A DNA stretch of 64,000 nt from an uncultured Acidobacteriota bacterium (GCA_963778755.1 CAVZVJ010000011.1:10226-74225), one strand, 5' to 3'. Counted from the stretch's first letter, positions 7,455 to 63,165 are shown. Numbers and translations are program-made. The notes: generated by a model from the letters alone, not told the origin.

Positions 7455-10260
7455 ATGCCGTTCCGTAATCTCAAGTTGCGCAAATCTCGTAACGCACCAA
7501 TATCTCCCCATCACAGGCACAACCATCGACATCAGGCTCCTCGGGCCGCCGCGGATCGAGAAGGCCGGAACGTCAATCGACGTGGACACCAGGAAGGCGA
7601 TTGCGCTCCTCGCCTACCTGACCGTCGAGACGACTGCCACGCGCGACCGGCTGGCGAGCCTCCTGTGGCCCGAGGCCAACACGGAGCGGTCACGAGCCAC
7701 CTTGCGGCGCACGCTCTCCTCGCTGCGCACCGCGGTCGGCCATGAGACAGTTACCGCCGACAGGATCGGCGTGGCTCTCGCTGAAGGCACGCCAAGTGAT
7801 ATCCGCACCTTCACCGACGAGCTCGAAGCGACCTACCACCACGACCATGACCGGGGCGACGTATGTGGTCTTTGCATTCCCCATCTCGAGAAGGCCACCG
7901 TTCTCTACCGGGGTGACTTCCTCGAGGGTTTCTCCATGCGAGACGCCGCCGAGTTCGAGGACTGGGCCCGCACCGTCACCGAGTCGCTTCGGATTCAAGC
8001 CGGGGTCGCCTTTCAACGTCTGGCCATGGCAAGAGCAGCCTCAGGCGACTACTCGGGCGCCCTCGGCGCTGTCCACAACTGGATCGAGCTCGATCCACTC
8101 CACGAGCCCGCCTACCGCCTTCTCATGCTGCTCAACGCCTGGGATGGCGACCGGCCGGGAGCGGTCGAGGCGTACCGGCGATGCGTCGGAGTTCTCGACC
8201 AGGAGCTTGGAGTTCCGCCCCTGGAGGAGACCACCGAGCTCTACGAGGCAATCCTCGATGAGGACCTCCCACCGGCGCCTGGTGTCAGGAGAAAGGTCAA
8301 GGCACAGGCGGTAGCAGTGGCGCAACGTGAGGCCATGATCGACCGGGAGGAGGAGACGGCCACTCTGCTCCAGGCCATGGACAGCCTCTCCGTCACAGGC
8401 AACGTGCTGGTTATCGCTGGGTCGGCATGGATGGGAAAGACCCGTCTGCTCGAGGAGTTGGGCCCGGCCTCGAGGATCTCGGGTCGCTCGGTGCTCTCTG
8501 GTCGCGCCTTCCGAATGGAACAAGATCTGCCTTTCGGGGTGGCGGCCCAACTACTCCGATCCGCCGCACCCCTGATCGACAGAAACCTCGAGTTGCTGCC
8601 CAACTGGGCCATGGGCGAGGTGGCGCGGCTGGTCCCCGAAATTCACCAGGCACCGGTGTCGACCGAAAGCGCCGATCCCTTCGGCGAGCTTCGTCTCTAT
8701 GACGGCGTGCACACGGTGCTCAGCGAACTGGCACGAATCCATCCGATCGTGATCATGATCGACGATGTGCAATGGCTTGACCCAGCGTCGGCGGGTCTCG
8801 TCTCTTACATCGCCAGCCGCCTCGAAACGTCGCCGTTGCTGCTCGTCCTCGCCGTGAGGTCAGGGGAACCACTCTCGGAGGTGACGAGCGAGCTGATCTC
8901 GGCCGCCGGTACCCACATCGACTTGCAGCCACTAACCATCGACCAACTGAGCGACGTTGCCGGCACTCTCGAAGCCGCCACGGAACTTCACCGGAGGACG
9001 GGAGGGATCCCACTTTTGGTGACCGAAGAGTTGTCGGACCGAGGCGACCACGGCCCCGAAGGCCTGGGGATGGTGCGCTACATGGAGTCACGCTTGAGGG
9101 ACATCAGCGACCTGGGTCGACAGGTGGCCACTGCGGCAGCGGTGCTCAACGGTGTCTGTGATGCCGCCTTGCTCCGAGAGACCAGCGGCCGCACCGAGGA
9201 CGAAGTAGTCGACGCCGTCGAGGAGTTGATTGCCGTCGGCTTGTTGCGGGAGCTGCCCGATGGAGACGGCCTGGCATTCAACCTCGATGCCCTGGAGCGG
9301 CTCACCTACGAGTCGACATCCCTGATCAGACGCCGGCTGCTCCACCGGCGTGCGGCATCAGCGCTGGCGGAACGCTCTCACTCCGCATCCGACCCCCGTC
9401 TCGCCGCTGCAGTGGCATTCCAGCTCGAGGGGGCCGGGTCGAGTGAGAGTGTCGAGTGGTACCGGCGCGCCGCCGACCTCTCGCGGGCCGTGTACGCATA
9501 TGCCGAGGCTCGGAGTCTCTACGAGAAGGCCCTCGGACTCGGTGACGCCGACCCCGCTGCAATCCATATGGCGCTTGGGGAGATCGCCATGTCAGTCGGC
9601 GAATACGACCAGGCCCTTCAAGAGCTCAACGGCGCCGCGGCCCTTGCTGACGGCGATCAGCTCGGCCTTGCCGAGCACCGTTTGGGTGAGGTTCAGCGTC
9701 TTGTTGGCCGGTTCCCCTTGGCGGCCGAGCATTACGAACGGGCTTTGGCCCTCCACCCGCAACCTGCGGAGGTGCATGCCGATTGGGCCCTGTTGTTGCA
9801 AAGGACGGGCGATGTCCCCGGAGCCCTCGAGCAGGCCGAGCTAGCTGTTGCGGCTGCCACCACCACCGGGGATCCGAGACAGCTCTCGCGAGCCCAGAAC
9901 ATCCTCGGAGTTATTTCGTCGGACCCGGACACCGCGATGGAGCATCTCGAAGAAGCAATGAGGCTCGCCGGCGAGGACGACCTGCTTCGAATGGCAGCCC
10001 TCAACAACCAGGCGCTGCTCCATACCGCGGCCGGGGAAGATCAACCAGCAGTGGAGTTGATCGAGGAGGCCATCCAGATCGCGGCCAGGACCGGTAATCG
10101 CCACCGGGAGGCCGCTTTGCACAATCATCTCGCCGATATTCACCACAGAGCAGGGCGGGAAGAGGAAGCGGAGCAACAGCTGATGCAAGCCGTCTCATTG
10201 TTCGCCGACGTCCACGCCGGAGGGCAGGAACCTGAGGTTTGGCTCCTCCGCCAGTGGTGA
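7455..10260 (+). CDS. SARP/BTAD transcriptional regulator with STAND-type AAA ATPase and TPR domains (start uncertain)
   Basis: IRLLGPPRI...TRKAIALLAYL wHTH, LYRGDFLEGF and DPLHEPAYRLLM BTAD, Walker A GSAWMGKT, Walker B IDDVQWLD, TPRs, C-terminal EPEVWLLRQW. Coding continues upstream of GTG 7582 with no in-frame start; ATG 7455 or TTG 7476 joins if one extra C near 7508 is removed. Confidence 0.85.
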
Positions 10261-10709: not shown

Positions 10710-10870
10710 CCCAGGGAAGCTCCATAGGGGACATCCCCCATAGGCGACACCACGGGCCCCCGTCAACATCACAGTCGGGGACTTCAGGGAAACCACGTCC
10801 CTTGAAGCGACAATGGGGAACCCATGGGGGGATCGCCTCGGCAGTCCCCCCATGGTTCAACCCCTGATTC
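10710..10870. promoter_or_regulatory. Cluster of GGGGA/TCCCC repeats, candidate NarL-type response regulator sites
   Basis: CCATAGGGGACATC and CCATAGGCGACACC (16-bp period), CAATGGGGAACC, and an inverted pair CCATGGGGG...CCCCCATGG upstream of the kinase. Confidence 0.4.
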
Positions 10871-10935
10871 TCCGAATGGCCATCAACTCAATGCAACGGG
10901 ATCCAATTGACGCCGAAGGGGTAGCTTCGGCCGTG

Positions 10936-12054
10936 ATGACCTCACGATTCAGCCATCGCGGGAGCCCTGAACTCGAGGCCACCCTTCGCCGGATGGTGGT
11001 CATCTTCCGGTTCCTCGGTTTGGTGTGGATGGCCATCCTGGTGGCCATCACCCTTGCAGTTGAGCCCCCACCGAGATTGTGGATCGTCTATGCGTCCGTC
11101 GCCCTCGCTCTGATCTGGACACTGCTCACCTGGTACATGTCCCGAGCCCACCCCAAAGCGATGAGCTCGATCGGGTGGTTTGCCCTCGACTCGCTGGCGA
11201 TGCTCGCCATCGGCGCCGCCTCGGTGGCGTCAGGCGCCGAGGAGTTGTTCCACGGCGGTCTTCCCCTGTCGTTGGTCTTCACCGGGGCGCTGGTCGGCGG
11301 GTTGCCGGGCTCGCTCATCGCCGCGTTGTTGCTCGGCGTGGAACAGTTCCTCGTCCACATCATCGCCAATCTCGGAGCGGTCAGAGCGGCGGGCAGTGTC
11401 ATCTTCTTCGTCGTCGGCGCGATTGTGGGCTGGACCTTCGACAAGCTGCGCGACTACGACATCGCCCGACAGGAGGCCCAGAATCGCCTCGCGGAGGAAC
11501 AGGCTGTGGTGTTGCTCCACGAGCAAAGGGCCGCACTCGCCGACCGGCTCCACGACTCTGTGTTGCAGACCCTGCATGCCATTCGGATGGGAGCCGACGA
11601 CCCAGCGCAATCTCGCTATCTCGCCAGACGCCAGGAACGCGAGCTCCGTCGCAATATCGAGGAGTGGCGCTCCGACTACCCCAACAGCTTCCGCGCCTCG
11701 CTGCTCGCGGTCCGAGACGAGATCGAAGACACTCATCGGGTCGAGATCGAGGCAGTGATCCGTGACGACGCCCAGCTCAACGCCAGTCTCAGCGCAGCCG
11801 TTGAGGCGGCCCGGGAGGCCTTGGCCAATGCCGCTAAACACTCCGGCTCGCCGAACATCGCCCTCTACGCCGAGTTCAGCAACGGTGATGCTCACATCCA
11901 CGTCAGGGACCGGGGAACCGGGTTCCGGGACGAGGCGGCGCGGATGCGGGTCCACGAGCGTCTAGCCAAACGAGTCGAATCGGTTGGTGGCGTGGTTGAC
12001 ATCGACTCAGGGCGCGAATCGGGCACCGAGATCAAAATCACCGTTGAGGTTTGA
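10936..12054 (+). CDS. Membrane sensor histidine kinase (NarX/LiaS-like, resembles actinobacterial PspC-associated kinases)
   Basis: About 6 TM, H-box RLHDSVLQTL, ARRQERELR, EALANAAKHS, VRDRGTGF; start uncertain (10891-10936). Confidence 0.85.
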   Translation: MTSRFSHRGSPELEATLRRMVVIFRFLGLVWMAILVAITLAVEPPPRLWIVYASVALALIWTLLTWYMSRAHPKAMSSIGWFALDSLAMLAIGAASVASGAEELFHGGLPLSLVFTGALVGGLPGSLIAALLLGVEQFLVHIIANLGAVRAAGSVIFFVVGAIVGWTFDKLRDYDIARQEAQNRLAEEQAVVLLHEQRAALADRLHDSVLQTLHAIRMGADDPAQSRYLARRQERELRRNIEEWRSDYPNSFRASLLAVRDEIEDTHRVEIEAVIRDDAQLNASLSAAVEAAREALANAAKHSGSPNIALYAEFSNGDAHIHVRDRGTGFRDEAARMRVHERLAKRVESVGGVVDIDSGRESGTEIKITVEV

Positions 12055-12704
12055 ACATGACGGACAGACTTCGCATCCTTCTCGTCGATGATCACGATGT
12101 CGTCCGCGCCGGGATGCGAGCCATCCTCGATCATTCGTTTGACATCGTCGGCGAAGCCGACAACGTGGACAGCGCGATCGAATTGACCCGGGAGCGAAAT
12201 CCGCAATTGGTCGTTCTCGATGTCAAGCTCCCGGGAGGCGGCGGGGCTTCGGTCATCGACGCCATTCGCCCCCAACAGCCAGACGTCCGGTTCATGGCGC
12301 TCACCGTTTCCACATCACGCGAGGACGTGGCGCGGCTGATGGAGGCCGGAGTCGACGGTTACATCACCAAGACCACCTTGGGGACCGACCTCCCCGACTT
12401 GATCCACCAGACCTACGCCGGAGCGCGACCGGTCTCACCTGATGTGGCCGGCTACCTGCTCGACATCGACGAAGACATCGTCGCCGAGTCGTCGATCTCG
12501 AGACTGACCCCACGGGAGCGGGAAGTGGTGAATCTGATCGCCAGGGGATACACCTACCGGGAGACCGCATCGAGGATGGGGATCCGGGTCAAGACCCTGG
12601 AGAACCACATGGCCCACATCTTCGACAAGCTGAGCGTGGCCAGCCGTCACGAATTGACCGCGCTGGCTTACGAAGAGGGTTATCTGCGGCCTGACGATCA
12701 CTGA
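12051..12704 (+). CDS. NarL/LuxR-family response regulator
   Basis: LLVDDH, VLDVKLP receiver; LTPREREVVNLIARG...TLENHMAHIFDKL LuxR HTH; 4-bp overlap with the kinase. Confidence 0.92.
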   Translation: MNMTDRLRILLVDDHDVVRAGMRAILDHSFDIVGEADNVDSAIELTRERNPQLVVLDVKLPGGGGASVIDAIRPQQPDVRFMALTVSTSREDVARLMEAGVDGYITKTTLGTDLPDLIHQTYAGARPVSPDVAGYLLDIDEDIVAESSISRLTPREREVVNLIARGYTYRETASRMGIRVKTLENHMAHIFDKLSVASRHELTALAYEEGYLRPDDH

Positions 12705-12874: not shown

Positions 12875-13852
12875 CTAAAACTGCAGCGCGGCAGAGGCCC
12901 AGTGCAGGCCGGCTCCGAAGGCGGTCAGCACCACCAGGTCCCCATCCTTGATCCGGCCGGTCTCGACCGCCTCCCATAGGGCGAAGGGCACCGTAGCCGA
13001 GCCGGTGTTCCCGTACTCCTGGATGTTCACGTAGACCTGTTCCTCGCTCAGACCCAGTCTGCGCCCGATGGCGTCGATGATCCTCAGATTCGCCTGATGA
13101 GGGATGACCAGGTCGACATCGTCGGTGGACTTCTCGATCCGGGCAAGAAGATCCTCCACGGAGGCACTCATCCGTTTCACCGCCTCGGTGAAGACTCTCG
13201 GGCCGTCCATGACCAGCCGGTTGTAGTCCCCGGCCGCCAGGCTCGCCTCGTTGAACGGGTTCCTGGTGCCCCCGGTGGCAAGGGTCAGGATCCCGGCCTG
13301 GGAGCCATCGGTTCCCGAGACCACCTCGAGCAGCTTTGCCCGCCCGCCCTCAGGACCCAGCACCACGGCACCGGCGGCGTCGCCAAAGAGGACCGAAGTG
13401 GCCCGGTCGGTCCAATCGAGGAGCCTGGTGATGAGCTCGACGCCGACTACAAGGATGTTCCGCGGGGAGAAGGCGATGCGGGCGCGTGCGATATCCAGCG
13501 CCTGGACAAACCCTGCGCAGCCGCTCCCACCAAGGTCGTAGACCGGTATGAAGTCACAGCCGAGACGATGCTGGAGGAGGGCGGCTGTGTCGGGGGTGTA
13601 GAGCTCTGGGGTGTCTGTGGCAATGATGATCTCGCCGATGTCGGCAGGGATCAGGCCGGCGTCCTTGATGGCGACCTCGGCGGCATTCGCTGCCAGGGTA
13701 AGCGTGGTCTCATCCTCGGCGGCAACCCGACGACGCTTGATGCCGGTCCGCTGGGTGATCCACTCGTCGGTGGTGTCAACCAGGAGAGCCCAATCGTCAT
13801 TGGTCATGACTCGTTCGGGGACATACCCCCCGAAACCAAGGAACGCTGCCAT
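12875..13852 (-). CDS. fabH: Beta-ketoacyl-ACP synthase III
   Basis: WITQRTGIKRRR, GSGCAGF catalytic Cys, FGDAAGA, PHQANLRII, YGNTGSA, FGAGL. Confidence 0.9.
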   Translation of the reverse strand: MAAFLGFGGYVPERVMTNDDWALLVDTTDEWITQRTGIKRRRVAAEDETTLTLAANAAEVAIKDAGLIPADIGEIIIATDTPELYTPDTAALLQHRLGCDFIPVYDLGGSGCAGFVQALDIARARIAFSPRNILVVGVELITRLLDWTDRATSVLFGDAAGAVVLGPEGGRAKLLEVVSGTDGSQAGILTLATGGTRNPFNEASLAAGDYNRLVMDGPRVFTEAVKRMSASVEDLLARIEKSTDDVDLVIPHQANLRIIDAIGRRLGLSEEQVYVNIQEYGNTGSATVPFALWEAVETGRIKDGDLVVLTAFGAGLHWASAALQF

Positions 13853-13936: not shown

Positions 13937-14209
13937 ATGGGATGGACTCGCGAACAACCACCTTGTGAGCACCTCGGCCTGATTCAAGAGGTCGAGCCGG
14001 CCAGCGCCGGCTGTGGCGAGTGCCTCGCGATCGGCGACACCTGGGTCCACCTTCGACTTTGCCTTATCTGCGGAAATGTCGGCTGCTGCGACCAGTCGAA
14101 GAACACACATGCCCGCAAGCACGCCGCCTCCTCCGGGCATCCGATTGTTCGCTCGTTCGAGCCCGGCGAAGATTGGCGTTGGTGTTTTCCGGACAATCGA
14201 TTCGTCTGA
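13937..14209 (+). CDS. Stand-alone UBP-type zinc finger protein
   Basis: CEH...CGEC...WVHLRLCLICGNVGCCDQSKNTHARKH...WRWCFPD. Confidence 0.88.
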   Translation: MGWTREQPPCEHLGLIQEVEPASAGCGECLAIGDTWVHLRLCLICGNVGCCDQSKNTHARKHAASSGHPIVRSFEPGEDWRWCFPDNRFV

Positions 14210-14212
14210 ACT

Positions 14213-15865
14213 ATGCCAAAGCCTGTGATCATGACCGTGGACGACGACCCTGAGGTGCTCCGGGCGGTCCAGCGCGATCTGCGGCGTCACTACAGCGAGG
14301 AGTTCCGGGTGGTTGCCGCCAATTCTGGCGCCGAAGCCCTGGAGACTCTCAAGGACCTGAGCCTCCGAAACGAGCCCGTCGCCTTGCTCCTGGTCGACCA
14401 GCGGATGCCTGACATGTCGGGAGTCCAATTCCTGGCGCAGACCCTGGAGCGCCTGCCAGACACAAAGAAGGCCCTGCTCACGGCCTATGCCGACACCGAA
14501 GCTGCGATCGCGGCCATCAACGAGGTGTCCCTCGACCACTACATCATGAAGCCCTGGGACCCGCCGGAAGAGCGTCTCTACCCGGTCCTCGACGACCTGC
14601 TCGAGGATTGGTGGGATCACTTCACACCGCGCTTCGAGGGAATCAGCGTGATCGGGAACCGTTGGGGGCGAGCCACTCACGACGTCCGAGCCTTCCTCGC
14701 CCGCAATCAGGTCCCCTATCGCTCGCTTGACCTCGGCACCGACGACCAGGCCGAGGCGCTGCTCGCCGATGTCGGCGGCGACCCCACACTGCTTCCGGTT
14801 GTGCTCTTGCCCGATGGGACCGTCCTCGTCCAGCCGACTACCGCTGATGTCGCCAACCGGATCGGTCTGAAGACCCAGCCCACCGAGCGCAACTACGACC
14901 TGGTGATCGTGGGCGCCGGGCCGGCCGGTCTCGCCGCCGCCGTGTATGGGGCGTCTGAGGGCCTGGCCACCCTTCTCGTCGAGAGTGAGGCTCCCGGAGG
15001 CCAGGCCGGCCAAAGCGCCCGCATCGAGAACTACCTCGGCTTCCCCAAGGGCCTGAGTGGCAGTGATCTCTCGAGACGGGCAGTCACCCAGGCGACCAGG
15101 TTCGGAGCCGAGATCCTGACCCCTGCCGAGGTCGTCTCAGTGACCCGGCACGACCCCTTCCGGACCGTCGGTCTCAACGATGGCACCGAGGTGAGCACCA
15201 AGGCGCTTCTGATCACAACCGGCGTCTCCTACACCAAGCTCGACGTACCTGGCATCGAGGACCTGACCGGTGCCGGCGTCTACTACGGGACCTCCCGGAT
15301 CGAGGGGGCCGCGCATCGCGATGAGCCAATGTTCATCATCGGGGCGGGCAACTCGGCGGGCCAGGCGGCCATGTTCCTCTCCCGATTTGGATCCAGCGTG
15401 ACGGTGATGGTGCGAGGCGATTCCCTGGCGGAATTCATGTCTCAATACCTGATCGACGCGATAACCGCGGAGGAAAACATCTTCGTCCGCTACCAAAGCC
15501 AACTCGTCGAGGCTCGGGGTGACACTCATCTCGAGCAGTTGGTGATCAAGGATCTGGCAACCGAGGAGACCGAGGTCGTTCCGGCCGGGGCGTTGTTCAT
15601 CTTCATCGGCCAATCCGCCCGCACCGAATGGGTCGGGGCCGACGTCGATCGAGATGACAGAGGGTTCATCCTCTCCGGTTCCGACTGCGGCCCGAACCCC
15701 AAGGGGTGGAATCTCCAGCGTTCACCCCTCCCCTTTGAGACTTCGGTCCCCGGGATCTTTGTCGCCGGCGACGTGCGCCACGGCTCGGTGAAGCGGGTCG
15801 CCTCATCGACCGGGGAGGGAGCAATGGCCGTCCGCTTCATTCACGAGCATCTGGCCGACTTGTGA
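14213..15865 (+). CDS. Receiver domain fused to thioredoxin reductase-like FAD/NADPH oxidoreductase
   Basis: TVDDD, LVDQRMP, LLTAY, KPW receiver; GAGPAGLAAA, GAGNSAGQAA, GIFVAGDVR flavoprotein motifs. Confidence 0.9.
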   Translation: MPKPVIMTVDDDPEVLRAVQRDLRRHYSEEFRVVAANSGAEALETLKDLSLRNEPVALLLVDQRMPDMSGVQFLAQTLERLPDTKKALLTAYADTEAAIAAINEVSLDHYIMKPWDPPEERLYPVLDDLLEDWWDHFTPRFEGISVIGNRWGRATHDVRAFLARNQVPYRSLDLGTDDQAEALLADVGGDPTLLPVVLLPDGTVLVQPTTADVANRIGLKTQPTERNYDLVIVGAGPAGLAAAVYGASEGLATLLVESEAPGGQAGQSARIENYLGFPKGLSGSDLSRRAVTQATRFGAEILTPAEVVSVTRHDPFRTVGLNDGTEVSTKALLITTGVSYTKLDVPGIEDLTGAGVYYGTSRIEGAAHRDEPMFIIGAGNSAGQAAMFLSRFGSSVTVMVRGDSLAEFMSQYLIDAITAEENIFVRYQSQLVEARGDTHLEQLVIKDLATEETEVVPAGALFIFIGQSARTEWVGADVDRDDRGFILSGSDCGPNPKGWNLQRSPLPFETSVPGIFVAGDVRHGSVKRVASSTGEGAMAVRFIHEHLADL

Positions 15866-17259
15866 ACACGATCTACGAACAGCTCAGAAAGCTCCCCTAC
15901 TTCGAAGATCTCCCCGAACGCCTCCTCCTACGGGTGTGCATTGCGTCCGAGCAACTTCACGCTGCTCCGGACGAGGTGATCATCGAAGAGGGCTCCATGA
16001 GCGACGGCCTCTACGTGGTGACCGAGGGCGAGCTCGAAGTCACCAAGATGAGTGCCGGGCGATCGATCGCATTGGCTCGCGTTGGCGCCGGCGCGGTGCT
16101 CGGCGAGATCTCCCTCCTCGACGATGTCCCCAGAATCGCCACGGTCAGGGCATTGACAGATGTGGAGTACATCAAGGTGCCCTCTGACACATTCACCGAG
16201 TTGTTGGACAACCCGAAGATGGTGCTCAGGATGCTGCGAACAGTCACCTCGCGCCTCAGGGAGACAGAGGGATTGGTGCGGAGTGAGGAGCGGATGGCCG
16301 GGCTCGGCCGCATGGCCGCCGGCCTCATGCACGAGATCAACAATCCGATGGCCGCCATCAGACACGGGACGAACTCGGGCCGGGCGATCATCGAGGACCT
16401 GGGTGACACCGCGCGCCGCCTCTCCACGAAGGGTGTGGTGCTGCCGGAGGAGACCCCATCGGAGCCACAGTCGGGGGAGATGAGTGCTCTGGCCAGGGCC
16501 GACGCCGAAGACGCCTTGGGTGAATGGCTCTCCGGTCTCGGGATCAGTGATGGCTGGGAGCTGGCCCCGTCGCTCCTCGACGCCGGTTGGACCGAGGAGA
16601 CCCTGGGCAAGCTCGTTCCCGACGCCGACCCTGAGACGAGGGCCGACCTGCTCCGTTGGCTCGGTCTCCGGCTGCTGGGGATCCAGGTCGCCACCGAGGT
16701 CAAGATCGGCGCCGACCGTGTCGCGGAGTTGATCCAGGCCGTCAAGGAGTTTTCTTACCTGGATCAGGGATCGATCCAGACCGTCAACCTCAAGTCCTCC
16801 ATCGAAAACGCCTTGGTGCTGCTGAAGCACAGATTGAAGGGAGGGGTCACGGTGATCAAGGAGTACGACCCTGACCTGCCCGAGATCGAGGCCTTCGGCG
16901 CCGAGCTGAGTCAGGTCTGGATCAATCTGATCGACAACGCCATCTACGCCATGGACGGCGAGGGCGTGCTGACCATCACTGCTACCCGGGACGGGGACGG
17001 CGTTCTGGTGACCATGGGCGACACGGGTACCGGCATTCCTGACGATGTCGCCTCCCGCATTTTCGACCCCTTTTTCACCACCAAGGAGCCGGGAGTGGGG
17101 ACCGGTCTCGGCCTGGCGACCGTGCATTCGATCGTGGCCCGCCATGGTGGCCAACTCGACTTCGTGACCGGTCCCTCGGGAACGACTTTTCGGGCCCGGC
17201 TCCTGCTCAAGCTCCCCGACGCCACTCGCGGCTCAGAGGGAGGCACAGGTCAGGGTTGA
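15862..17259 (+). CDS. Cytoplasmic histidine kinase with N-terminal cyclic nucleotide-binding domain
   Basis: LGEISLLDDVPRIATVRA cNBD; MHEINNP H-box; QVWINLIDNA, DTGTGIP, FFTTKEPGVGTGLGL. Confidence 0.92.
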   Translation: MNTIYEQLRKLPYFEDLPERLLLRVCIASEQLHAAPDEVIIEEGSMSDGLYVVTEGELEVTKMSAGRSIALARVGAGAVLGEISLLDDVPRIATVRALTDVEYIKVPSDTFTELLDNPKMVLRMLRTVTSRLRETEGLVRSEERMAGLGRMAAGLMHEINNPMAAIRHGTNSGRAIIEDLGDTARRLSTKGVVLPEETPSEPQSGEMSALARADAEDALGEWLSGLGISDGWELAPSLLDAGWTEETLGKLVPDADPETRADLLRWLGLRLLGIQVATEVKIGADRVAELIQAVKEFSYLDQGSIQTVNLKSSIENALVLLKHRLKGGVTVIKEYDPDLPEIEAFGAELSQVWINLIDNAIYAMDGEGVLTITATRDGDGVLVTMGDTGTGIPDDVASRIFDPFFTTKEPGVGTGLGLATVHSIVARHGGQLDFVTGPSGTTFRARLLLKLPDATRGSEGGTGQG

Positions 17260-17263
17260 CCGG

Positions 17264-18340
17264 TCAGACCTTCACCCGATAGCGCGCGAGGATCTCGGCC
17301 GTTCTGTCGAGAGGCAGGGCGTGAGCGACTCTCCCCGACCTCCCGGTGGTCGTCTCGGCTGCGAACAGGGCATTGACGATCGACTCCTCGGTGGCGTCGA
17401 CCACGGCATGAAACAGCGGGTCCATGACCTCGTTGGGCAGGGTGGTCACGGTTCGGGCCTTGCCGGGGTTGCGCTCGAGATGGTTGGCGGTCGAGAACGC
17501 AATGAACAGGTCGCCACTGGAGTCGTGCCCGTAACCGCCGACCCGGCCAACTCCAACCGTCGCTCGTTGCGCAAGGCGTTTGCACTGACCGGAGATCAGG
17601 GGGGCGTCCGTGGCGATCACGACGATTATCGAGCCCCCGTTAGTCGGCCCCACGCCAAGGGCGGGAACCTCATCGGTTCCGATCAGTGCCCCTACCGGCA
17701 CCCCGTCGATGCGGAAGTCCTCCCGCAACCCGTAATTCACCTGCACCAGGACACCGACTACATGGCGCGCGCCGCAAATGTCCACCGCCCTCGAAGAGGT
17801 GCCGATCCCCGACTTGAACTCGTGACAGATCATCCCGGTGCCACCTCCGACGCATCCCTCGGCCACGGTGCCAGTGGCCGCTGAGGAGAGGGCCGCCGCC
17901 GCATCATCTTCCGTCAGAGCAAACGCCTCCGCTTCGTTGAGATCTGAGTCGTCGGTCTCTCCCACCACGGGAAGCAGAAAATCGTCGACCACCCCGAGGT
18001 TCACTCCCTCCTTCGTCAAGAAGTCGCGCACCATCCCCACCTGGAAGGTGTTGGTGATCCCGATCGGCGAGCCCAGCATCCCCGATTCTTCCACCCAGGC
18101 GAGACCGGTCATCTCACCGTTGCCGTTGAAAACGTGGGAGCCGGCGTAGACGTAATCGGTCCAGATCTCGCCGTCGCGGGGGACGACCATCGTGATCCCG
18201 CTCCGGATCACATGAGGCGAATCCCTGACCACCGTGGCATGTCCGACCAATACGCCCGGAACATCGGTGATCGCATTCGATGGCCCGGTAGGCAGCTTTC
18301 CGATTCCATCACTCATATCACGCAGCCTGGCCTTCAACAC
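17264..18340 (-). CDS. DmpA/P1-family (S58) aminopeptidase
   Basis: NAITDVPGVLVGH, FNGNGEMTG, EGCVGGGTGM, GGSIIVVIATDAP, SSGDLFIAFST. Confidence 0.88.
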   Translation of the reverse strand: MLKARLRDMSDGIGKLPTGPSNAITDVPGVLVGHATVVRDSPHVIRSGITMVVPRDGEIWTDYVYAGSHVFNGNGEMTGLAWVEESGMLGSPIGITNTFQVGMVRDFLTKEGVNLGVVDDFLLPVVGETDDSDLNEAEAFALTEDDAAAALSSAATGTVAEGCVGGGTGMICHEFKSGIGTSSRAVDICGARHVVGVLVQVNYGLREDFRIDGVPVGALIGTDEVPALGVGPTNGGSIIVVIATDAPLISGQCKRLAQRATVGVGRVGGYGHDSSGDLFIAFSTANHLERNPGKARTVTTLPNEVMDPLFHAVVDATEESIVNALFAAETTTGRSGRVAHALPLDRTAEILARYRVKV

Positions 18341-18390: not shown

Positions 18391-19722
18391 ATGACCCCGG
18401 ACCGTGATTCGATGAGCTCCGTCTTCCACCGCGGCTCGGGGTCTCTCCCAACTGCCACAACAGCAAGCGGATCCTGGGTGACCGACGCCGAGGGGAAGCC
18501 GTATCTGGACGCCGCCGGAGGAGCGATCGTGGTCGGGATCGGCCACGGTGTCCCCGAGGTCGCAGAAGCAATGGCTGCCCAAGCTGGAAATCTGGCGTAC
18601 GTCCATGGCTCGGCTTTCACGACGGAGCCATTGGAGGCCTATGCCTCTGAGCTGGCGGCAATTGTGCCCATGGACAGAGCCAGAGTGTTCCCGGTCTCCG
18701 GCGGATCGGAGGCGATGGAGAGCGCCTTGAAGATGGCTCGGGCGTACCACCTCGCCAAGAACCGCCCGGAACGGGCCGTCATCATCGCTCGGGGAGCCTC
18801 CTATCACGGAAACACCCGCGGGGCGCTCGATGTCTCCGGACGGGAGCCCCTCCGCCGGCCGTACGAGCCGTGGCTGGGCCAGACCAGGCGAGTCCCCGGT
18901 GTCACCGAGTACCGATGCCCCAATCCCGGACATCCGAACGGATGTGCGGAGTGGCATGCCAGTCAACTGGAGGCGGCCATCGCCGCGGAAGGGCCGGAGC
19001 GGGTTGCGGCGTTCGTCGCCGAGCCGATCGGAGGGGCTGCCAGCGGGGCGGCCCTCCCCCCAAACGGCTATTGGGACGCCATCGCAGAACTTTGTCGCCG
19101 ACACGACATCCTGGTCATTGCCGACGAGGTGATGACCGGATTCGGGAGGACAGGGGAATGGTTCGCCGCCGATCACTTCGGGCTGCGGCCGGACATTCTG
19201 GTCTCTGCCAAAGGCGCCTCCAGCGGGTATTGGCCCTTGGGCCTGGCGATCACCTCGGGTGACGTCCACGACACCATCGTGGGCGGCGGCGGCCTGATCC
19301 ACGGCTTCACCTGGTCCCACCATCCGGTCGGAGCAGCCGTTGGCTTGGCGGTGCTGGACCGGATTCGCGGGCTACGACTGATCGACCGGGCACGGACCCA
19401 GGGTGAGCGCTTGCTCCTGGCACTGCGCTCGGCGCTCGGGGACCATCCCCGAGTTGGCGACATCAGAGGAACCGGGCTCCTGCTTTGTGTGGAACTGGTC
19501 GCCGACCGTGACACCAAGACGCCGTTCGCCCGATCCGAACAGGTCACCGAGCAAACGCTTCTGAGGGCCCGGGAGAGCGGTCTCTTGCTGTATCCGTCGA
19601 CGGGCAACGCCGATGGAGTCAATGGGGACTATCTCCTCATCGGCCCGCCTCTGACCGTCACCGATGACGAGGTGGATCTGATAGTCGATCGGCTGTCGAC
19701 GACGCTGGGCGCCCTTCGATGA
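18391..19722 (+). CDS. Class III PLP aminotransferase
   Basis: YLDAAGGA, SGGSEAMESALK, SYHG, FVAEP, IADEVMTGFGRTG, SAKG PLP lysine, HGFT. Start may be 18412. Confidence 0.92.
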   Translation: MTPDRDSMSSVFHRGSGSLPTATTASGSWVTDAEGKPYLDAAGGAIVVGIGHGVPEVAEAMAAQAGNLAYVHGSAFTTEPLEAYASELAAIVPMDRARVFPVSGGSEAMESALKMARAYHLAKNRPERAVIIARGASYHGNTRGALDVSGREPLRRPYEPWLGQTRRVPGVTEYRCPNPGHPNGCAEWHASQLEAAIAAEGPERVAAFVAEPIGGAASGAALPPNGYWDAIAELCRRHDILVIADEVMTGFGRTGEWFAADHFGLRPDILVSAKGASSGYWPLGLAITSGDVHDTIVGGGGLIHGFTWSHHPVGAAVGLAVLDRIRGLRLIDRARTQGERLLLALRSALGDHPRVGDIRGTGLLLCVELVADRDTKTPFARSEQVTEQTLLRARESGLLLYPSTGNADGVNGDYLLIGPPLTVTDDEVDLIVDRLSTTLGALR

Positions 19723-20774
19723 GCCTCACCGCGGTCTGGTCTGAGGGATACCTGGCTCACGACGCCAACTGGCTGGTCTGGGTAGGAGTCCGCCTTCCCG
19801 GGGACGAGGAAGCAGATCGCGCCCTCATCATCAAGACCGCCCTGGAACAGGCCGGTGTGCCGATCGTCGAGGCCGTCGCGCATGATCGGAGCAACATCGA
19901 GGCGGTGCACGACCCGGGAATGGTCGACTACCTGGAGACCGCTCACCAACTCTGGGTCGAGGCCGGCTACCCGGAGGAGCCCGGTGTCGACAGAGTCGTG
20001 CCCTATGTCTTCCCGCATCCCGCCGCGGTCCGGTACCAGCCCGGCGTCATCCCCACGAGCAGGGCGGCCATGGCCGGGGTCTATTGCATGGATACCGCCA
20101 CCGTGATCGGCCCCGGGACCTATGCCGGCGCCCGTGCCGCTGTCGACGGGGCGATCACCGCAGCGGAGCTGGTCCGGGGCGGGACCGGCTCGGCCTACGC
20201 CCCGGTCCGACCCCCCGGCCATCACGCCGGGACCTCCTACTTCGGCGGGTCCTGCTACCTGAACAATGCTGCCGTGGCCACGGAATGGCTCGTGAGAAAC
20301 GACACGGGGCGGGTGGCCATCCTCGACATCGACGCCCATCACGGCAATGGGACCCAGGAGATCTTCTACGAGCGCGCTGACGTCCTCTACACCTCGACCC
20401 ATGTCGACCCGGGCCAAGGTTGGTTTCCCCACTTCTGCGGATTCGAGGGGGAAACCGGCGCCGGGCCAGGACGGGGGGCCAACCTCAACCTGCCGCTGAC
20501 GCCAGGGAGTGGCGACCGCGGCTTTCTCGAAGCCTTGGAACGAGGCTGTGAGGCGATTAAACGATTCAAACCCGACACGTTGGTGGTATCGATGGGGGTG
20601 GACGCCGGGGCCGAAGATCCCGAGAGCCCGCTTCAGGTGACCAACGATGGATTTACAGCGGCCGGGAAAACGATCGCTGCTCTCGGTCTGCCCAGCGTTC
20701 TGATCCAGGAGGGCGGGTATCACCTTGAATCACTTGGGTCGGACGTCATGGCTATCTTGGCCGCCTTCCCGTGA
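19719..20774 (+). CDS. Histone deacetylase-family protein (acetylpolyamine amidohydrolase-like)
   Basis: RPPGHHA, CYLNNAA, DIDAHHGNGTQ, GVD, QEGGY; 4-bp overlap with the aminotransferase. Confidence 0.9.
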   Translation: MSLTAVWSEGYLAHDANWLVWVGVRLPGDEEADRALIIKTALEQAGVPIVEAVAHDRSNIEAVHDPGMVDYLETAHQLWVEAGYPEEPGVDRVVPYVFPHPAAVRYQPGVIPTSRAAMAGVYCMDTATVIGPGTYAGARAAVDGAITAAELVRGGTGSAYAPVRPPGHHAGTSYFGGSCYLNNAAVATEWLVRNDTGRVAILDIDAHHGNGTQEIFYERADVLYTSTHVDPGQGWFPHFCGFEGETGAGPGRGANLNLPLTPGSGDRGFLEALERGCEAIKRFKPDTLVVSMGVDAGAEDPESPLQVTNDGFTAAGKTIAALGLPSVLIQEGGYHLESLGSDVMAILAAFP

Positions 20775-22597
20775 CCCAAGGAGGGTGGGTGACTGACGGA
20801 ATATGGGTGGGCGAAGACGTTCATCGGGGACCTCCAAGCGAGGATCTGGCCGATCGGCCCAAATCCGTGCACTGGCGACTCGAGGATGTGTGGGCCACAG
20901 CCCGGCCTTACCACGCCACGGTTTCCCCGGATGGCTCCGCGGTGGCATTCCTGCTCGACTTCGAGGGAACAACTGACATCTGGTTGGTTGATCTTGAAGG
21001 CCGCCTGTCCCGGCTGACGACGGACCGGGCACTCACCGCATATTGGGAGGATTCGGCGCCGGTCTGGTCGCCGGACAATGATCTGCTCGCGTACAACAGC
21101 GCCGGATGGGTCCACATCGTCAGCGCAGCCACCGGTCTCGGTCAAAGAGTGGTCGAGGGTTCGGCCGGGGCCTGGCTCGACGAAAAGAACCTTCTCATCA
21201 TCGTCGAGCACGACCACCTTTCCTGGCTGGCCGCGGTCGATATCGAGGATCCCGAGTCACCGCCAAAGACCCTGGGCCCCATCGACGGCGATGTCCACGA
21301 CCCGCAGGTGGCCGACGACGGAAGGGTGTTGGCCACCTATTTGCCCAAGGACGACCTCAACCGCTCCGACCTGATCCTGGTTGCAGCCGATGGGTCGTGG
21401 GTCACCGTTGTCGGCCACCCGGATCGGCGTGCCGAGGCGGCACGGCCCCGTGGCGGCCAGATCGCATACGTATTCGAGGACGAAGATCGGTTCTCGCTCT
21501 TCGTCTCCGATATCGACGGCAGCAACCCAAAGCGGCTTGCAACCGGTGACCTCGACTTTGGGGCTCCGGAGTGGATGCCAGACGGGAGCGGTCTGGTGGC
21601 CAGGGGCGCCCATCGCGGGCAGACCGACCTCATGACTGTGGGTCTCGATGGCTCGACCGAGGTTCTCGCCGCGGGAGGGGCCTGGGGGTCGCCACATCCT
21701 TCTTCGGACGGGGTTGTCGCCACTCATGAGTCGTGGGGATCACCACCACGGCTGAAGCTGCTGAGACCTGATGGCAAGGAAGTGACCCTCTACGACGGGG
21801 TGCCCACAGCGATTCGGCATGCCACCCACGTGTTGCCGGAGCGAATCACCTACAAGTCGCTGGACGGTTTGGAGATCGAAGGGTTCTTGTTCAAGCCGAG
21901 CCGATCATCACATCCGGTTCCAGCCGTGCTCTATGCCCACGGTGGGCCCACCGACGCCTACGCGGACGAATGGGATGGGCAGGCCCAGCACTTCATAGAG
22001 AACGGATATGGATGGCTCACGATCAATTTCCGGGGGTCGACCTCGTATGGCCTGGAATTCGAGCGGGCCAACCACGGTGACTGCGGGATTGGCGACGCCG
22101 GTGACTGCATCGCAGGCGGCAAATTCCTTCGGGGGTTGGATTGGGTCGATCCCGATCGAATCGCCATCTTCGGTGCCAGTTATGGAGCGTATTTGACCCT
22201 CGCCGCGCTCGTTCACCCCGAGAACCCATTCGTGTGCGGTATCGCCAAATACGGCGACTTCAACATGCTCACCTCTTGGGACCAGACCGACAGCGTGGGC
22301 CACGCCGAATTTCTTCGGTTGTACGGGCATCCCGACAAGAACCCGGAGGCATACCGGACAGGCTCACCGATTCATGGGGTGCCCAACCTGACGGCGCCGA
22401 TCCTCATCGCCCAGGGCCTCAAGGACCCTCGTATCCACCCGAAGCAGGCCGACGAATTGGTCGAGGCGTTGGAACGCAACGGCAAGACCTACGAATACGT
22501 CAGCTATCCCACCGAGGCGCACGGCCTTCTCCGCCGTGAGCCACAGCTTCATTTCTACCGCCGTCTCGGCCGATTTCTGGACTGGCACACCAGATAG
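20771..22597 (+). CDS. S9-family prolyl oligopeptidase/acylaminoacyl peptidase
   Basis: N-terminal propeller repeats, HGGP, GASYG nucleophile, QGLKDPRI Asp, EAHG His. Confidence 0.9.
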   Translation: MTQGGWVTDGIWVGEDVHRGPPSEDLADRPKSVHWRLEDVWATARPYHATVSPDGSAVAFLLDFEGTTDIWLVDLEGRLSRLTTDRALTAYWEDSAPVWSPDNDLLAYNSAGWVHIVSAATGLGQRVVEGSAGAWLDEKNLLIIVEHDHLSWLAAVDIEDPESPPKTLGPIDGDVHDPQVADDGRVLATYLPKDDLNRSDLILVAADGSWVTVVGHPDRRAEAARPRGGQIAYVFEDEDRFSLFVSDIDGSNPKRLATGDLDFGAPEWMPDGSGLVARGAHRGQTDLMTVGLDGSTEVLAAGGAWGSPHPSSDGVVATHESWGSPPRLKLLRPDGKEVTLYDGVPTAIRHATHVLPERITYKSLDGLEIEGFLFKPSRSSHPVPAVLYAHGGPTDAYADEWDGQAQHFIENGYGWLTINFRGSTSYGLEFERANHGDCGIGDAGDCIAGGKFLRGLDWVDPDRIAIFGASYGAYLTLAALVHPENPFVCGIAKYGDFNMLTSWDQTDSVGHAEFLRLYGHPDKNPEAYRTGSPIHGVPNLTAPILIAQGLKDPRIHPKQADELVEALERNGKTYEYVSYPTEAHGLLRREPQLHFYRRLGRFLDWHTR

Positions 22598-60995: not shown

Positions 60996-62447
60996 ACGGC
61001 CCGGTGCGCCGGATCGCGATCGGGGTATTCACCGCGTTCTGCGCCCTTCTCCTGGCGGTGACCTGGATCCAGGTAGTCCACGCCGACGCTCTCAAGGCCG
61101 ACCCACGCAATGCTCGCCCGGCCCTTTCCGAGCGGGGCAAGGAGCGTGGTCTGATCGTCTCCATCGACGGGACCGTGGTGGCCGAGTCAGTGGTAGATCC
61201 GTTGGATCCCCGCTCGTTCGTGCGCACCTATCCGGAGGGAGAAGCCTTTGCCCATGTGGTCGGATATAACTCGTTCATCGTCGGTGACTCCGGTCTGGAG
61301 GCCGCCTATGCGCCCGTCCTCAGATCAAAGCGCGACCTGACGATCAGCGACATGATCTCGGTGATCCTGGGCCGTGACCTGCGGCCCCACAGCATCGAGA
61401 TGACGGTCAATGGCCCATTGCAGCGAGCCGCCTTCGAAGCCCTTGGAGGGCAAACCGGAGCCGTGATCGCTCTCGACCCGAAAACCGGCGCTGTCCTGGC
61501 GGCGGTGTCCTCACCTTCCTCGACCCCGAATCGCTGCTCGGGGAGGACGCAGCGGCAGTTTGGGACGAGCTTCTTGCCGACCCCACCAGCCCGCTGAGCG
61601 ACCGCTCGACGAAAGAGCTGTTTGCCCCGGGATCGACCTTCAAGACGGTGGTGACGGCCACTGCCTTGGACACCGGCGAGGCCAACCCCGAGACCCAGTT
61701 TCCCGATCCCCTCGAGTATCAGCTGGAAGGATCGACGGACACCATCTCCAACTTCGACGGGGAGGTCTGCAACGACGGCGAGTCCGTCACCCTGCTGGTC
61801 GCCTTCGTACGCTCCTGTAACACGGTATTTGCCGACCTATCGGTCCGACTAGGCGCCGAGGACATCGGGATCACCGCCGAGGCTCTCGGGTTCAACACCG
61901 ACCTCGACTTCCCGTGGCCGGTTCCCGGGCCAACTTCCCGGTGGACGACCTGATCGATGACCCCGCCGCCTTGGCGCAGAGTGGAATTCGGGAACGCGAC
62001 GTGCGCGCTACTCCGTTGCATATGGCAATGATCGCCGCAGCAGTCGCCAATCAGGGCGAGGTTTCCAACCCGTACCTGGTGAATCGGGTGTTCGACGCCG
62101 ACGGGAACACCCTGGATACCACGGTGCCTGTCTCCATGGGACGGGCGATGGCGCCTGCCACCGCATCGGTTCTGGCCCAAATGATGGAGCGGGTGGTCAC
62201 CGAGGGCACGGGGCGCAACGCCGCCGTGCCCGGGATCAGGGTCGCCGGCAAGACCGGGACCGCCGAAGGCGCCGGTGACGGGCGACATGCCTGGTTTATC
62301 GGTTTTGCCCCGGTGGAGATCTCCACGATCGCGATCGCCGTCTTGATCGCTGGAGGTGGGAACATCGGAGAATCCGCAACCGGCGGCGGTGTGGCTGCCC
62401 CAATCGCCGCCGACCTCATTTCACTCTGGCTGCAAGGAACTTCATGA
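60992..62447 (+). CDS. pbpA: Class B penicillin-binding protein PbpA (apparent 1-nt deletions near 61519 and 61929)
   Basis: RTYP, PGSTFK (SxxK), SCN (SxN), AGKTGTAE (KTG) across three frames. Confidence 0.9.
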
Positions 62448-62484
62448 GTTGGCGCCAGGGCGTTCCTACAATCCAGCGCCTTCC

Positions 62485-63158
62485 ATGAACACCCCAAGTG
62501 AACTGACCGATCGTTATCACATCACGTCCCACCTGGCCCGGGGCGGGATGGCCGACGTCTATGAGGGCCAGGACACCTTGCTCAACCGCAGGGTTGCGAT
62601 CAAGGTCCTCCACGCCCAGTACTCGGCGGACGAGGCCTTTGTGAAGCGGTTCCGCCGGGAAGCGCAGGCAGCCGCGAATCTTCAGCCACCCCAACATCGT
62701 GGGCATTTACGACTGGGGTCAGGCTCAGGGCACCTATTTCATCGTCATGGGGAACTCGTCGACGGCCGCTCTCTGCGTGACGTGCTCAAGTCGGAGGGGG
62801 CTCTTTGGCCCGCCGGGCCACCGAAATCGCGGCCGAGGTCGCCGCTGCGCTCTCCATCGCTCATCAGGCCGGCCTCGTCCATCGCGACGTCAAGCCGGGA
62901 AACATCCTTCTCGCCAAGGACGGAACGGTGAAAGTCACCGACTTCGGGATTGCAAGGGCATGGGACGACAGTGCCGAGTTGACCAAGACAGGCGCCGTCA
63001 TCGGCACCGCCACCTATTTCAGCCCGGAGCAGGCTCAAGGGGCCGCAGCTGACGCCCGGAGTGACGTCTATGCGCTCGGGGTCGTTCTCTACGAGATGCT
63101 CACTGGCAGGCCGCCATTCACCGGCGACAGCCCAATGTCGGTTGCGTTCCAGCATCGA
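62485..63158 (+). CDS. pknB: Ser/Thr kinase PknB, N-terminal kinase domain only (frameshifted, truncated at the junction)
   Basis: [60 protein letters not shown], then the sequence switches. Confidence 0.9.
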
Positions 63159-63165
63159 ACCACGT
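63150..63165. other. Abrupt GC-to-AT junction, probable chimera
   Basis: pknB ends at ...TTC CAG CAT and addA ends at ...GAA CGT GGT, head-to-head, with no repeat, att site or IS end visible. Confidence 0.85.

Follow-up and report, generated by a model that had tools for sequence, protein, structure and literature searches.

A conserved three-gene operon encoding a zf-UBP protein, a receiver-fused flavoprotein without CxxC and a soluble histidine kinase in an uncultured Acidobacteriota bacterium

The three-gene operon and the domains of its regulator

The window analysed here, a stretch of 64,000 nucleotides from an uncultured Acidobacteriota bacterium (GCA_963778755.1, CAVZVJ010000011.1:10226-74225), carries three consecutive plus-strand open reading frames, with positions counted from the first letter of the window. 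The first (13937-14209, 90 aa) encodes a stand-alone zf-UBP protein. The second (14213-15865, 550 aa) encodes a response regulator, in which a receiver is followed by a Cys-less glutaredoxin (Grx) fold and by a CxxC-less fold of the low-molecular-weight (low-Mr) thioredoxin reductase (TrxR) type. The third (15862-17259, 465 aa) encodes a soluble histidine kinase. Read from the sequence, the junction between the first two genes is TGA-act-ATG (14207-14215, plus strand), in which the zf-UBP stop codon TGA occupies 14207-14209 and the regulator ATG begins at 14213, leaving a gap of 3 nt. The regulator and kinase genes share a GTGA start/stop overlap (15862-15865, plus strand), where the stop codon of the regulator overlaps the GTG start codon of the kinase. 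A preliminary description of this DNA had reported three translationally coupled genes, and the gap and the overlap agree with it.

Both flanking genes are situated on the minus strand and are unrelated to the operon, namely a gene for a FabH-like 3-ketoacyl-ACP synthase III (KAS III) at 12875-13852 and a peptidase S58 gene at 17264-18340; therefore, the unit consists of three genes. A wider operon is ruled out by these opposite-strand flanks together with the surroundings in other phyla, where no further gene family is conserved around the kinase-regulator pair across the lineages. The same three-gene order is retained in relatives at 85-95% identity (L001-L011), which argues that the arrangement is not due to chance. 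The G+C content is even around the operon (0.63-0.65), and a promoter/terminator scan returned nothing above background. The nearest relatives are metagenome-assembled genomes (MAGs) of Acidimicrobiia, and the source assembly comprises 1.8 Mb and is 58% complete. The system is real and well conserved, and catalogues list it by its architecture only.

The receiver domain of the regulator (14213-14578, plus strand; residues 1-122) matches Pfam Response_reg over residues 6-118 with E = 1e-15. Residues D10, D11, D62, T90, and K113 show no variation among 35 sequences drawn from many phyla, and Asp62 (14396-14398, plus strand) is the phospho-acceptor. The nearest receivers are those of the RpfG/NosR type (NF053512, E = 7e-33 over the receiver) and of the HupR type. 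The phospho-acceptor set is complete and the cognate kinase is adjacent, consistent with the receiver assigned previously; the term phosphorelay, however, does not hold, the two proteins forming a plain His-Asp two-component pair and not a multi-step chain.

The TrxR-like body (14888-15862, plus strand; residues 226-550) has the two-Rossmann organization for flavin adenine dinucleotide (FAD) and NAD(P)H, with a Pyr_redox_2 match at residues 228-536 (E = 5e-35). The GxGxxG, GGQAG...IENYLGFP, GxGNSAGQ, and GD motifs are kept, and the glycine motifs for FAD and NAD(P)H are invariant. In the place of the classical GVSxCxxCDG, the former active-site loop reads GVYYGTSRIEG (15275-15307, plus strand; residues 355-365) with a one-residue insertion, and GVYYGTSRIEGA is aligned by HMMER to GVSYC-AVCDGA of the L. 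lactis TrxR 5MH4. Within this loop, Y357 and Y358 are invariant, and G359 and E364 are at least 90% conserved. A single cysteine (C492) exists among the 550 residues of the regulator, and CxxC is absent throughout the family of flavoproteins fused to a receiver or to a cyclic nucleotide monophosphate (cNMP) binding domain. The absence of the catalytic disulfide, noted earlier for the window protein, is confirmed in this way by the loop alignment, the sole cysteine, and the family-wide pattern; with its motifs for FAD and NAD(P)H retained, the flavoprotein cannot be a dithiol reductase.

In the region of the NADPH 2'-phosphate motif, VRGDSLA is aligned to HRRDKLR, with R401 alone kept and invariant. 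The Cys-less clade has acquired three insertions, namely a single residue in the former CxxC loop, the two-residue MSxYL insertion, and a stretch of ~16 residues. The last of these, the family-specific insertion SDCGPNPKGWNLQRSPLPFE (15671-15739, plus strand; residues ~487-509), was delimited from the alignments and the list of invariant columns; the inserted stretch GPNPKGWNLQRSPLPFE (~16 residues) has no counterpart in TrxB or in the Cys-containing Grx-TrxR fusions, and G489, W499, R503, P505, and E509 of the insertion are invariant. Across phyla, the mean column identity of the flavoprotein-regulator family is 67%. For the regulator, an AlphaFold2 (AF2) model computed with 35 family members has a predicted local distance difference test (pLDDT) score of 87.5. 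In Foldseek comparisons, the TrxR body of this model fits the structures in the flavin-reducing (FR) state (5MH4, 1F6M, and 3CTY) with template modelling (TM) scores of 0.89-0.91 and a root-mean-square deviation (rmsd) of 2.2-2.9 Å, and the structures in the flavin-oxidizing (FO) state with a TM score of ~0.63 and an rmsd of ~7 Å. A housekeeping TrxB was sought in the same genome as a yardstick, and none was found in the 58% complete assembly.

The best solved relatives of this body are true low-Mr TrxRs (L. lactis 5MH4, E = 2e-45), and ferredoxin reductases of the TrxR type match it far more weakly (E = 3e-14). The TrxR fold and these best matches in the Protein Data Bank (PDB) agree with the label that JGI gives to homologues, 'thioredoxin reductase (NADPH)', under which the regulator would be an ordinary thioredoxin reductase that happens to carry a receiver. 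The probability of such an identity is negligible, as CxxC is missing, a single cysteine is left, HRRD has become VRGD, and the loss of cysteines is clade-wide. Moreover, the regulator scores 217.3 bits against the cut-off of 343.45 bits of TIGR01292, the NCBIfam equivalog for TrxB, and this score and the missing CxxC together rule out an ordinary TrxB.

Between the receiver and the TrxR-like part lies a Cys-less glutaredoxin/thioredoxin-fold domain (14630-14872, plus strand; residues ~140-220), a feature missing from the preliminary description, which is recognized from the AF2 fold, phmmer, and the alignment. In the AF2 model, residues 144-217 follow the order β-α-β-α-β-β-α, corresponding to the glutaredoxin/thioredoxin fold. 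The domain matches Pfam Glutaredoxin below threshold (E = 0.07), and in phmmer it matches the N-terminal Grx domain of ~400-aa Cys-containing fusions from Actinomycetota with E-values of 1e-7 to 1e-11; the N-terminal domain of these fusions itself matches Pfam Glutaredoxin with E = 4e-13. At the aligned Grx site, the window regulator has W-G-R-A-T, the family consensus is W-S-P-x-S, and the Cys-containing sisters have W-C-P-D-C. The cis-Pro P195 is retained in the Grx-fold domain of the regulator.

The soluble kinase and the descent of the Cys-less clade

The kinase (15862-17259, plus strand; 465 aa) consists of a CAP_ED sensor, a dimerization and histidine phosphotransfer (DHp) domain with an inserted helical subdomain, and an ATPase domain. 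Pfam cNMP_binding (PF00027) matches residues 33-116 with E = 9e-21, and the β-roll spans residues 30-107 in the AF2 model (pLDDT 84). The maximum of the Kyte-Doolittle 19-residue window is 1.53 and the model is all soluble, in keeping with a kinase without a membrane segment; together with the PF00027 match, this substantiates the soluble kinase with a cNMP-binding input proposed earlier. The kinase has one cysteine. A continuous helix (residues 118-189 in the AF2 model) extends from the C-helix of CAP_ED through the phospho-accepting His157 (16330-16332, plus strand), situated in the invariant H-box AAGLxHE[IL]NNP, into the DHp domain. At the tip of the DHp hairpin, AF2 and the alignment place a helical subdomain of ~65 residues (16429-16629, plus strand; residues ~190-256) with a conserved SDxED...WL...W.LAP motif. 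Because of this insertion, the match to Pfam HisKA is weak (19.7 bits against a cut-off of 26.9) and covers only residues 149-167; both DHp helices are present in the AF2 model. The subdomain may be a docking site for the regulator or the zf-UBP protein. The HATPase_c catalytic domain (16774-17211, plus strand) is matched by Pfam at residues 348-449 with E = 2e-21.

The phosphate-binding cassette GEISLLDDVPRIATVRA of the kinase (16102-16152, plus strand; residues 81-97) contains Glu82 and Arg91, and the cassette GEISLLDDVPRIATV of the window kinase is canonical for cNMP phosphate binding. The ligand in this organism is probably cAMP or cGMP, since both phosphate-binding residues, Glu and Arg, are in place. 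In a set of 51 family kinases, the cassette Glu is found in 27/51 and the cNMP-contacting Arg in 12/51, and the canonical cassette is, as judged from these alignments, restricted to the clade of the window kinase. Universal cNMP sensing across the family is rejected because the Arg occurs in only 12 of these kinases; a cyclic nucleotide is not the family-wide ligand. The nucleotide sensing put forward in the preliminary description is thus retained for the window kinase, with its canonical cassette, and abandoned as a family-wide trait.

Scoring covered more than 8000 homologue clusters, and the relatives in one-genome-per-species contigs number 167. These relatives span Acidimicrobiia, Ktedonobacteria and other Chloroflexota, Nostocales, Bryobacterales and other Acidobacteriota, Gemmatimonadota, Bacteroidota, Verrucomicrobiota, streptomycetes, and archaea of the Nitrososphaeraceae (Thaumarchaeota). 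A same-strand kinase adjoins the regulator in 59/80 loci, and 8 of the other 21 loci are cut less than 1 kb from the regulator. In three loci (L175, L180, and L016), two or three tandem paralogous kinases of the cNMP type follow the receiver-flavoprotein gene.

The descent of the flavoprotein is indicated by Grx-TrxR fusions of ~400 aa from four Actinomycetota genomes (L169-L172 in G139, G207, G051, and G125), in which WCPDC and CATCDG are intact, and which contain neither a regulatory domain nor an HRRD motif. In a maximum-likelihood tree of the TrxR-like body, the Cys-less proteins, whether fused to a receiver or to a cNMP domain, form one clade with support of 100/99. This clade is sister to the Cys-containing Grx-TrxR fusions, and both are split from canonical TrxB with support of 100/100. 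Because all the Cys-less proteins form a single clade beside the Cys-containing fusions, the dithiol cysteines were probably lost once, in a self-contained Grx-TrxR disulfide reductase that was later put under receiver or cNMP control. The fusions of L169-L172 could be self-contained disulfide reductases at present; no paper on fusions of this type was found, and they are apparently uncharacterised. Nine genomes contain the Cys-containing fusion alone, and zf-UBP is missing from each of them.

The Cys-less flavoprotein body is also found directly fused to a cNMP domain. The existence of such versions points to the flavoprotein body as the regulated part. In Streptomyces (L129, L144, L152, and L154), the gene order is dnaJ-C-terminal protein, clpB, Trx2-type zinc-ribbon thioredoxin, zf-UBP, cNMP-Grx-TrxR-like protein, and hsp20, which places the one-component (cNMP-fused) version in a chaperone/stress cluster.

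The zf-UBP protein and its linkage to the flavoprotein

The zf-UBP protein (13937-14209, plus strand; 90 aa) matches Pfam PF02148 with E = 8e-15 and 55 bits against a cut-off of 22.7, and has kin at 47-91% identity across phyla. Among its 90 residues are eight Cys and five His, in line with the Cys/His-rich character reported earlier for this upstream stand-alone protein. The residues C10, H12, C26, C29, C42, C45, C50, H58, H62, H68, and C83 are invariant and D86 is near-invariant; these 12 predicted ligands are enough for three Zn sites, and their columns align with HDAC6 and USP49. Asp86 replaces one Cys ligand of the eukaryotic ZnF-UBP. The bacterial-specific features are the invariant C51-D52, S54, and R40, the last of which is carried by a 'VHLR' insertion. 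A solved homologue, 2IDA (E = 1e-37), has been deposited as a hypothetical protein.

In ZnF-UBP domains, a key Arg guides the GlyGly tail of ubiquitin (PMC13493902). The position of this residue in the GRY motif of HDAC6 is taken by Gln53 in the window protein and by Ser in the consensus, directly after the invariant C51-D52. With the key Arg replaced, binding of a GlyGly tail by the bacterial zf-UBP should not be taken for granted. The spare Cys51-Asp52 in the pocket region, which the zinc scaffold does not need, is a candidate functional site.

Genomic linkage connects this protein to the flavoprotein. A zf-UBP gene is adjacent in 22/80 regulator loci, upstream in Acidimicrobiia, Thaumarchaeota, and Kitasatospora, downstream of the kinase in Ktedonobacteria and Bryobacteraceae, and directly after the regulator in one Bacteroidota genome. 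When 80 loci are sampled by zf-UBP instead, 28/80 contain a Cys-less flavoprotein, of which 16 are receiver-fused; the 12 others have the same Cys-less Grx-TrxR body, cNMP-fused where checked and N-terminally bare in L145. In a further 6/80 zf-UBP loci, all from Terriglobia (L089, L097, L098, L106, L113, and L119), a canonical trxB (CATC, HRRD) is located directly upstream, which makes the link between zf-UBP and the TrxR fold wider than the Cys-less clade. Among 201 Actinomycetota genomes, 41 have both zf-UBP and the flavoprotein, 11 the flavoprotein only, 12 zf-UBP only, and 137 neither, giving an odds ratio of 43 (Fisher p = 7e-22) and, at the genus level, an odds ratio of 47 (p = 8e-17). 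The preliminary description had staked its reading on the co-conservation of zf-UBP, and both the adjacency and the co-occurrence bear this out. No correlation was seen by eye between zf-UBP adjacency and the partly conserved Cys329/Cys368 columns.

Such strong co-conservation may be explained if the flavoprotein is a phosphorylation-gated NAD(P)H oxidoreductase with the zf-UBP metal centre as its electron acceptor, like rubredoxin reductase with rubredoxin or ferredoxin-NADP+ reductase (FNR) with ferredoxin. CxxC-less TrxR folds that reduce metalloproteins do exist, and the TrxR-type FNRs 3LZW, 3AB1, and 6GAS are distant relatives of the regulator. Furthermore, zf-UBP adjoins the kinase-less cNMP-fused and N-terminally bare versions (L145 and others), and its extra invariant Cys-Asp goes beyond the need of three Zn sites. 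Transfer of electrons to zf-UBP is nevertheless doubtful. The ligand sets align with the structural, non-redox-active Zn sites of the HDAC6 and USP domains; fusion to kinases and membrane transporters, described below, would be uncommon in an electron carrier; zf-UBP is missing from many of the genomes that encode the flavoprotein; and the flavoprotein is far nearer to true TrxRs than to FNRs by the E-values given above.

Fusions of zf-UBP extend this linkage. Kinases that combine cNMP_binding, HATPase_c, and zf-UBP in one ORF adjoin the regulator in two Actinomycetota loci (L173, 3274-4941; L174, 3627-5375), and L173 also has a free zf-UBP gene upstream. Among the best 120 homologue clusters of the fused kinase, 54/120 have all three Pfam domains, with sources including Nitriliruptorales, Pseudonocardia, and a Chloroflexota MAG. 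In addition, zf-UBP forms the C-terminal domain of Na_H_Exchanger proteins (L063, L176, and L177) and of a major facilitator superfamily (MFS) transporter (L178), and the Na_H_Exchanger-zf-UBP gene of L063 directly adjoins the regulator gene. All the fused copies keep the signature LRxC...GCCDxS...WxWC. Direct fusions of the flavoprotein with zf-UBP were not found among the top 120 homologue clusters in a search that was not exhaustive. Two other proteins (L175, 7945-9384, 479 aa; L179, 2141-3286, 381 aa) end in a zf-UBP domain, preceded in each by a sequence without any Pfam match. As zf-UBP is appended to kinases and transporters, the pattern of fusions suggests a regulatory or docking module more than a diffusible electron carrier.

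The position of zf-UBP at the kinase C-terminus would also suit a kinase input or regulatory subunit, with the flavoprotein reducing a small substrate that is not a protein, for instance a quinone, a metal ion, sulfane sulfur, or a low-molecular-weight thiol/thione in its oxidised form. The 'trxB3' gene SCO7298 of S. coelicolor is induced by polysulfide (PMC9952706) and by acid shock (PMC2631018), and the cNMP-fused version of Streptomyces sits between clpB/dnaJ, the Trx2-type thioredoxin, and hsp20, as would fit a reductase of this kind. Such a small substrate is, however, quite improbable. zf-UBP is adjacent to kinase-less cNMP-fused flavoproteins too, so that the gene it consistently accompanies is that of the flavoprotein and not that of the kinase, and no substrate-specific gene is conserved beside the pair across phyla.

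The loss of all catalytic thiols with retention of the cofactor sites is compatible with a third possibility, in which the flavoprotein is a sensor or pseudoenzyme that responds to the NAD(P)H/NAD(P)+ ratio or to the redox state of the flavin and, together with receiver phosphorylation, sets a protein-protein interaction with zf-UBP-bearing targets or with the kinase. The pathway contains no DNA-binding or other obvious output, and the presence of zf-UBP on transporters and a kinase suits regulation by binding, for which KefF-KefC may serve as a precedent by analogy. A pure sensor is still rather unlikely in view of the very high conservation across phyla, with a mean column identity of 67%, and of the insertion with invariant W, R, P, and E, which resembles a preserved active or binding site, a likeness that does not distinguish catalysis from binding. 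Sequence analysis does not separate the zf-UBP-acceptor, small-molecule-reductase, and pure-sensor explanations from one another.

Several other features of the window lie outside the operon. Just upstream of it, a second two-component pair is encoded by two genes with a 4-nt overlap, consisting of a 413-aa membrane protein with a histidine-kinase-like C-terminus (10813-12054), which has no Pfam match at E <= 1e-5, and a response regulator of the NarL/LuxR type (12051-12704). Further upstream, an 892-aa protein with BTAD, AAA_16, and TPR domains (7582-10260) is a large regulator of the SARP/AfsR-like type. Downstream, at 18391-22597, genes for a class-III aminotransferase, a histone-deacetylase-family amidohydrolase, and a protein of the S9 prolyl-oligopeptidase family are chained by 4-nt overlaps. 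A tie between the HDAC-family gene (19719-20774, 2.5 kb downstream of the operon) and zf-UBP, as in HDAC6, was considered and is treated as coincidence, because the arrangement is found only in close relatives. At the end of the window (62001-64000), the G+C content falls to 0.54 compared with ~0.63 elsewhere.

The proposed switch and its comparison with known systems

The reading preferred here, which we hold with about even confidence, is a cytoplasmic two-component switch with an enzyme-shaped output, in which the His-Asp pair gates a thiol-independent NAD(P)H/FAD flavoprotein and zf-UBP is a docking or regulatory partner. The CAP_ED β-roll of the kinase would sense the ligand, the continuous helix would relay the signal to the DHp domain, and His157 would autophosphorylate and pass its phosphoryl group to Asp62 of the regulator. 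The output would be an FAD/NAD(P)H flavoprotein of Grx-TrxR descent that has lost both dithiol centres and gained family-specific loops; owing to the loss of both centres, the regulator cannot reduce thioredoxin. Phosphorylation of the receiver may be transmitted by the linker helix and the Cys-less glutaredoxin fold to the flavoprotein, altering its domain rotation or dimer state, and may thereby turn on or off either an NAD(P)H/flavin activity independent of thiols or a binding surface that depends on the redox state. Meanwhile, zf-UBP would be a physical partner of the kinase-regulator complex, a metal-scaffolded docking or regulatory module and not a reader of ubiquitin tails, which may couple the state of the flavoprotein to the kinase and, elsewhere, to cation/proton and MFS transporters. 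Within this scheme, the gene structure and domain identities, the intact motifs of the receiver, the kinase, and the nucleotide-binding sites, the loss of cysteines, the descent of the flavoprotein, and the co-conservation and fusion of zf-UBP are shown by the analysis; we infer the ligand, what phosphorylation does and in which direction, the chemistry of the flavin, and the role of zf-UBP.

Several points weigh against such a switch. The change from HRRD to VRGD makes the use of the nucleotide and its specificity uncertain. The co-occurrence statistics, with odds ratios of 43 and 47, take account of phylogeny only by collapsing to genus. Among 37 regulator genomes without an adjacent zf-UBP, 22 carry the gene at another location and 15 lack it altogether, some of these genomes being incomplete MAGs; zf-UBP is hence not obligatory. 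The kinase-zf-UBP fusion is equally compatible with zf-UBP as a sensory input. The preliminary description, in which nucleotide or redox sensing switched electron transfer to the zinc finger or a ferredoxin-like partner, is supported in part: the receiver/kinase pair, the cofactor motifs, the co-conservation, and the canonical cassette of the window kinase speak for it, and the fusion pattern of zf-UBP and the scarcity of the cassette Arg across the family call for its revision.

A soluble kinase with a receiver-flavoprotein is among the more widespread two-component outputs without a known function, and databases often mislabel the receiver-flavoprotein as a thioredoxin reductase. If the proposed descent is right, the family would be a clean case of a Grx-TrxR enzyme lineage from which thiol chemistry disappeared a single time before the protein came to serve as a regulated module. 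From the co-occurrence of zf-UBP and its fusions come concrete, testable hypotheses on pairwise binding and activity. The system would also place a prokaryotic ZnF-UBP domain in a functional context for the first time; to our knowledge, this domain has otherwise been described only in eukaryotes, as a reader of ubiquitin tails.

Compared with TrxB (EC 1.8.1.9; L. lactis 5MH4 and E. coli 1F6M), the regulator has in common the two-Rossmann FAD/NAD(P)H fold and the GGQ...ENxxGFP, GxGxSA, and GD motifs, and differs in the absence of CxxC, the change of HRRD to VRGD, the three insertions, and the fused receiver and Grx fold. In the case of the Grx(WCPDC)-TrxR(CATC) fusions of Actinomycetota, an N-terminal glutaredoxin fold is likewise followed by a TrxR body, and GGQAG and GDVRxGSxK[QR][LV]AS are common to both, but the fusions keep both dithiol centres and have no regulatory domain. 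AhpF and NTRC, in which a Trx-fold module is fused to a TrxR body, are looser likenesses. The TrxR-type ferredoxin-NADP+ reductases (YumC/TRLF) resemble the regulator in lacking CxxC and in the GxGV[HY]Y motif, but match it with E = 3e-14 as against 2e-45 for TrxRs.

Response regulators of a 'TrxB' class are catalogued in censuses (P2CS/P2RP), among them S. coelicolor SCO7298 with the kinase SCO7297 (PMC9739842), and a 'Mycobacterium-like REC-thioredoxin reductase' is listed by Galperin et al. 2018 (PMC5847659). By the catalogued domain label, regulators of the SCO7298 type have the same receiver, TrxB-like domain, and adjacent kinase, and streptomycete members (L077 and L162) are present in the receiver-flavoprotein family. 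For SCO7298 ('trxB3'), changes in expression after acid shock (PMC2631018) and polysulfide (PMC9952706) are the only data found in the literature, and no biochemical characterisation was found. Likewise, no functional study of REC-TrxB proteins, the bacterial zf-UBP, RPA1320/2IDA, or the cNMP-TrxR fusions was found there, consistent with the earlier statement that REC-TrxB fusions are catalogued, with no characterisation known.

In CheB, RpfG (REC-HD-GYP), and PleD/WspR (REC-GGDEF), a phospho-Asp receiver gates a fused catalytic domain, as is proposed here; the output of the present regulator, however, would be a flavoprotein and not a methylesterase or a nucleotide-signalling enzyme. An anti-phage defence system was considered and ruled out, since PADLOC matches only the generic cNMP domain, which resembles the sensors of Pycsar effectors, and the other two proteins have no match. 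The eukaryotic ZnF-UBP (BUZ) domains of HDAC6, USP5, and USP16 and the bacterial 2IDA align with the window zf-UBP at the Cys/His ligand positions of the three Zn sites. Compared with the eukaryotic domains, the window protein has Ser/Gln in place of the key Arg, an invariant Cys-Asp preceding it, the VHLR insertion, and Asp for one Cys ligand.

In the KefF-KefC and KefG-KefB systems, a flavoprotein ancillary subunit regulates a CPA2 cation/proton antiporter. By analogy and not by homology, a soluble NAD(P)H flavoprotein is here tied genetically to the C-terminal cytoplasmic domain of a transporter of the Na_H_Exchanger family, with a different flavoprotein fold and with zf-UBP in place of KTN. 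A bolder proposal, which we consider speculative and somewhat doubtful, is that the bacterial zf-UBP is a previously unrecognised regulatory module that physically couples a signal-gated, thiol-free flavoprotein to its targets. Tethered to the kinase, it would provide feedback; tethered to Na+/H+ exchangers or MFS transporters, it would let the NAD(P)H/flavin state and a second messenger gate transport. If true, a logic similar to that of KefF-KefC would have been assembled from entirely different parts, across many bacterial phyla and Thaumarchaeota.

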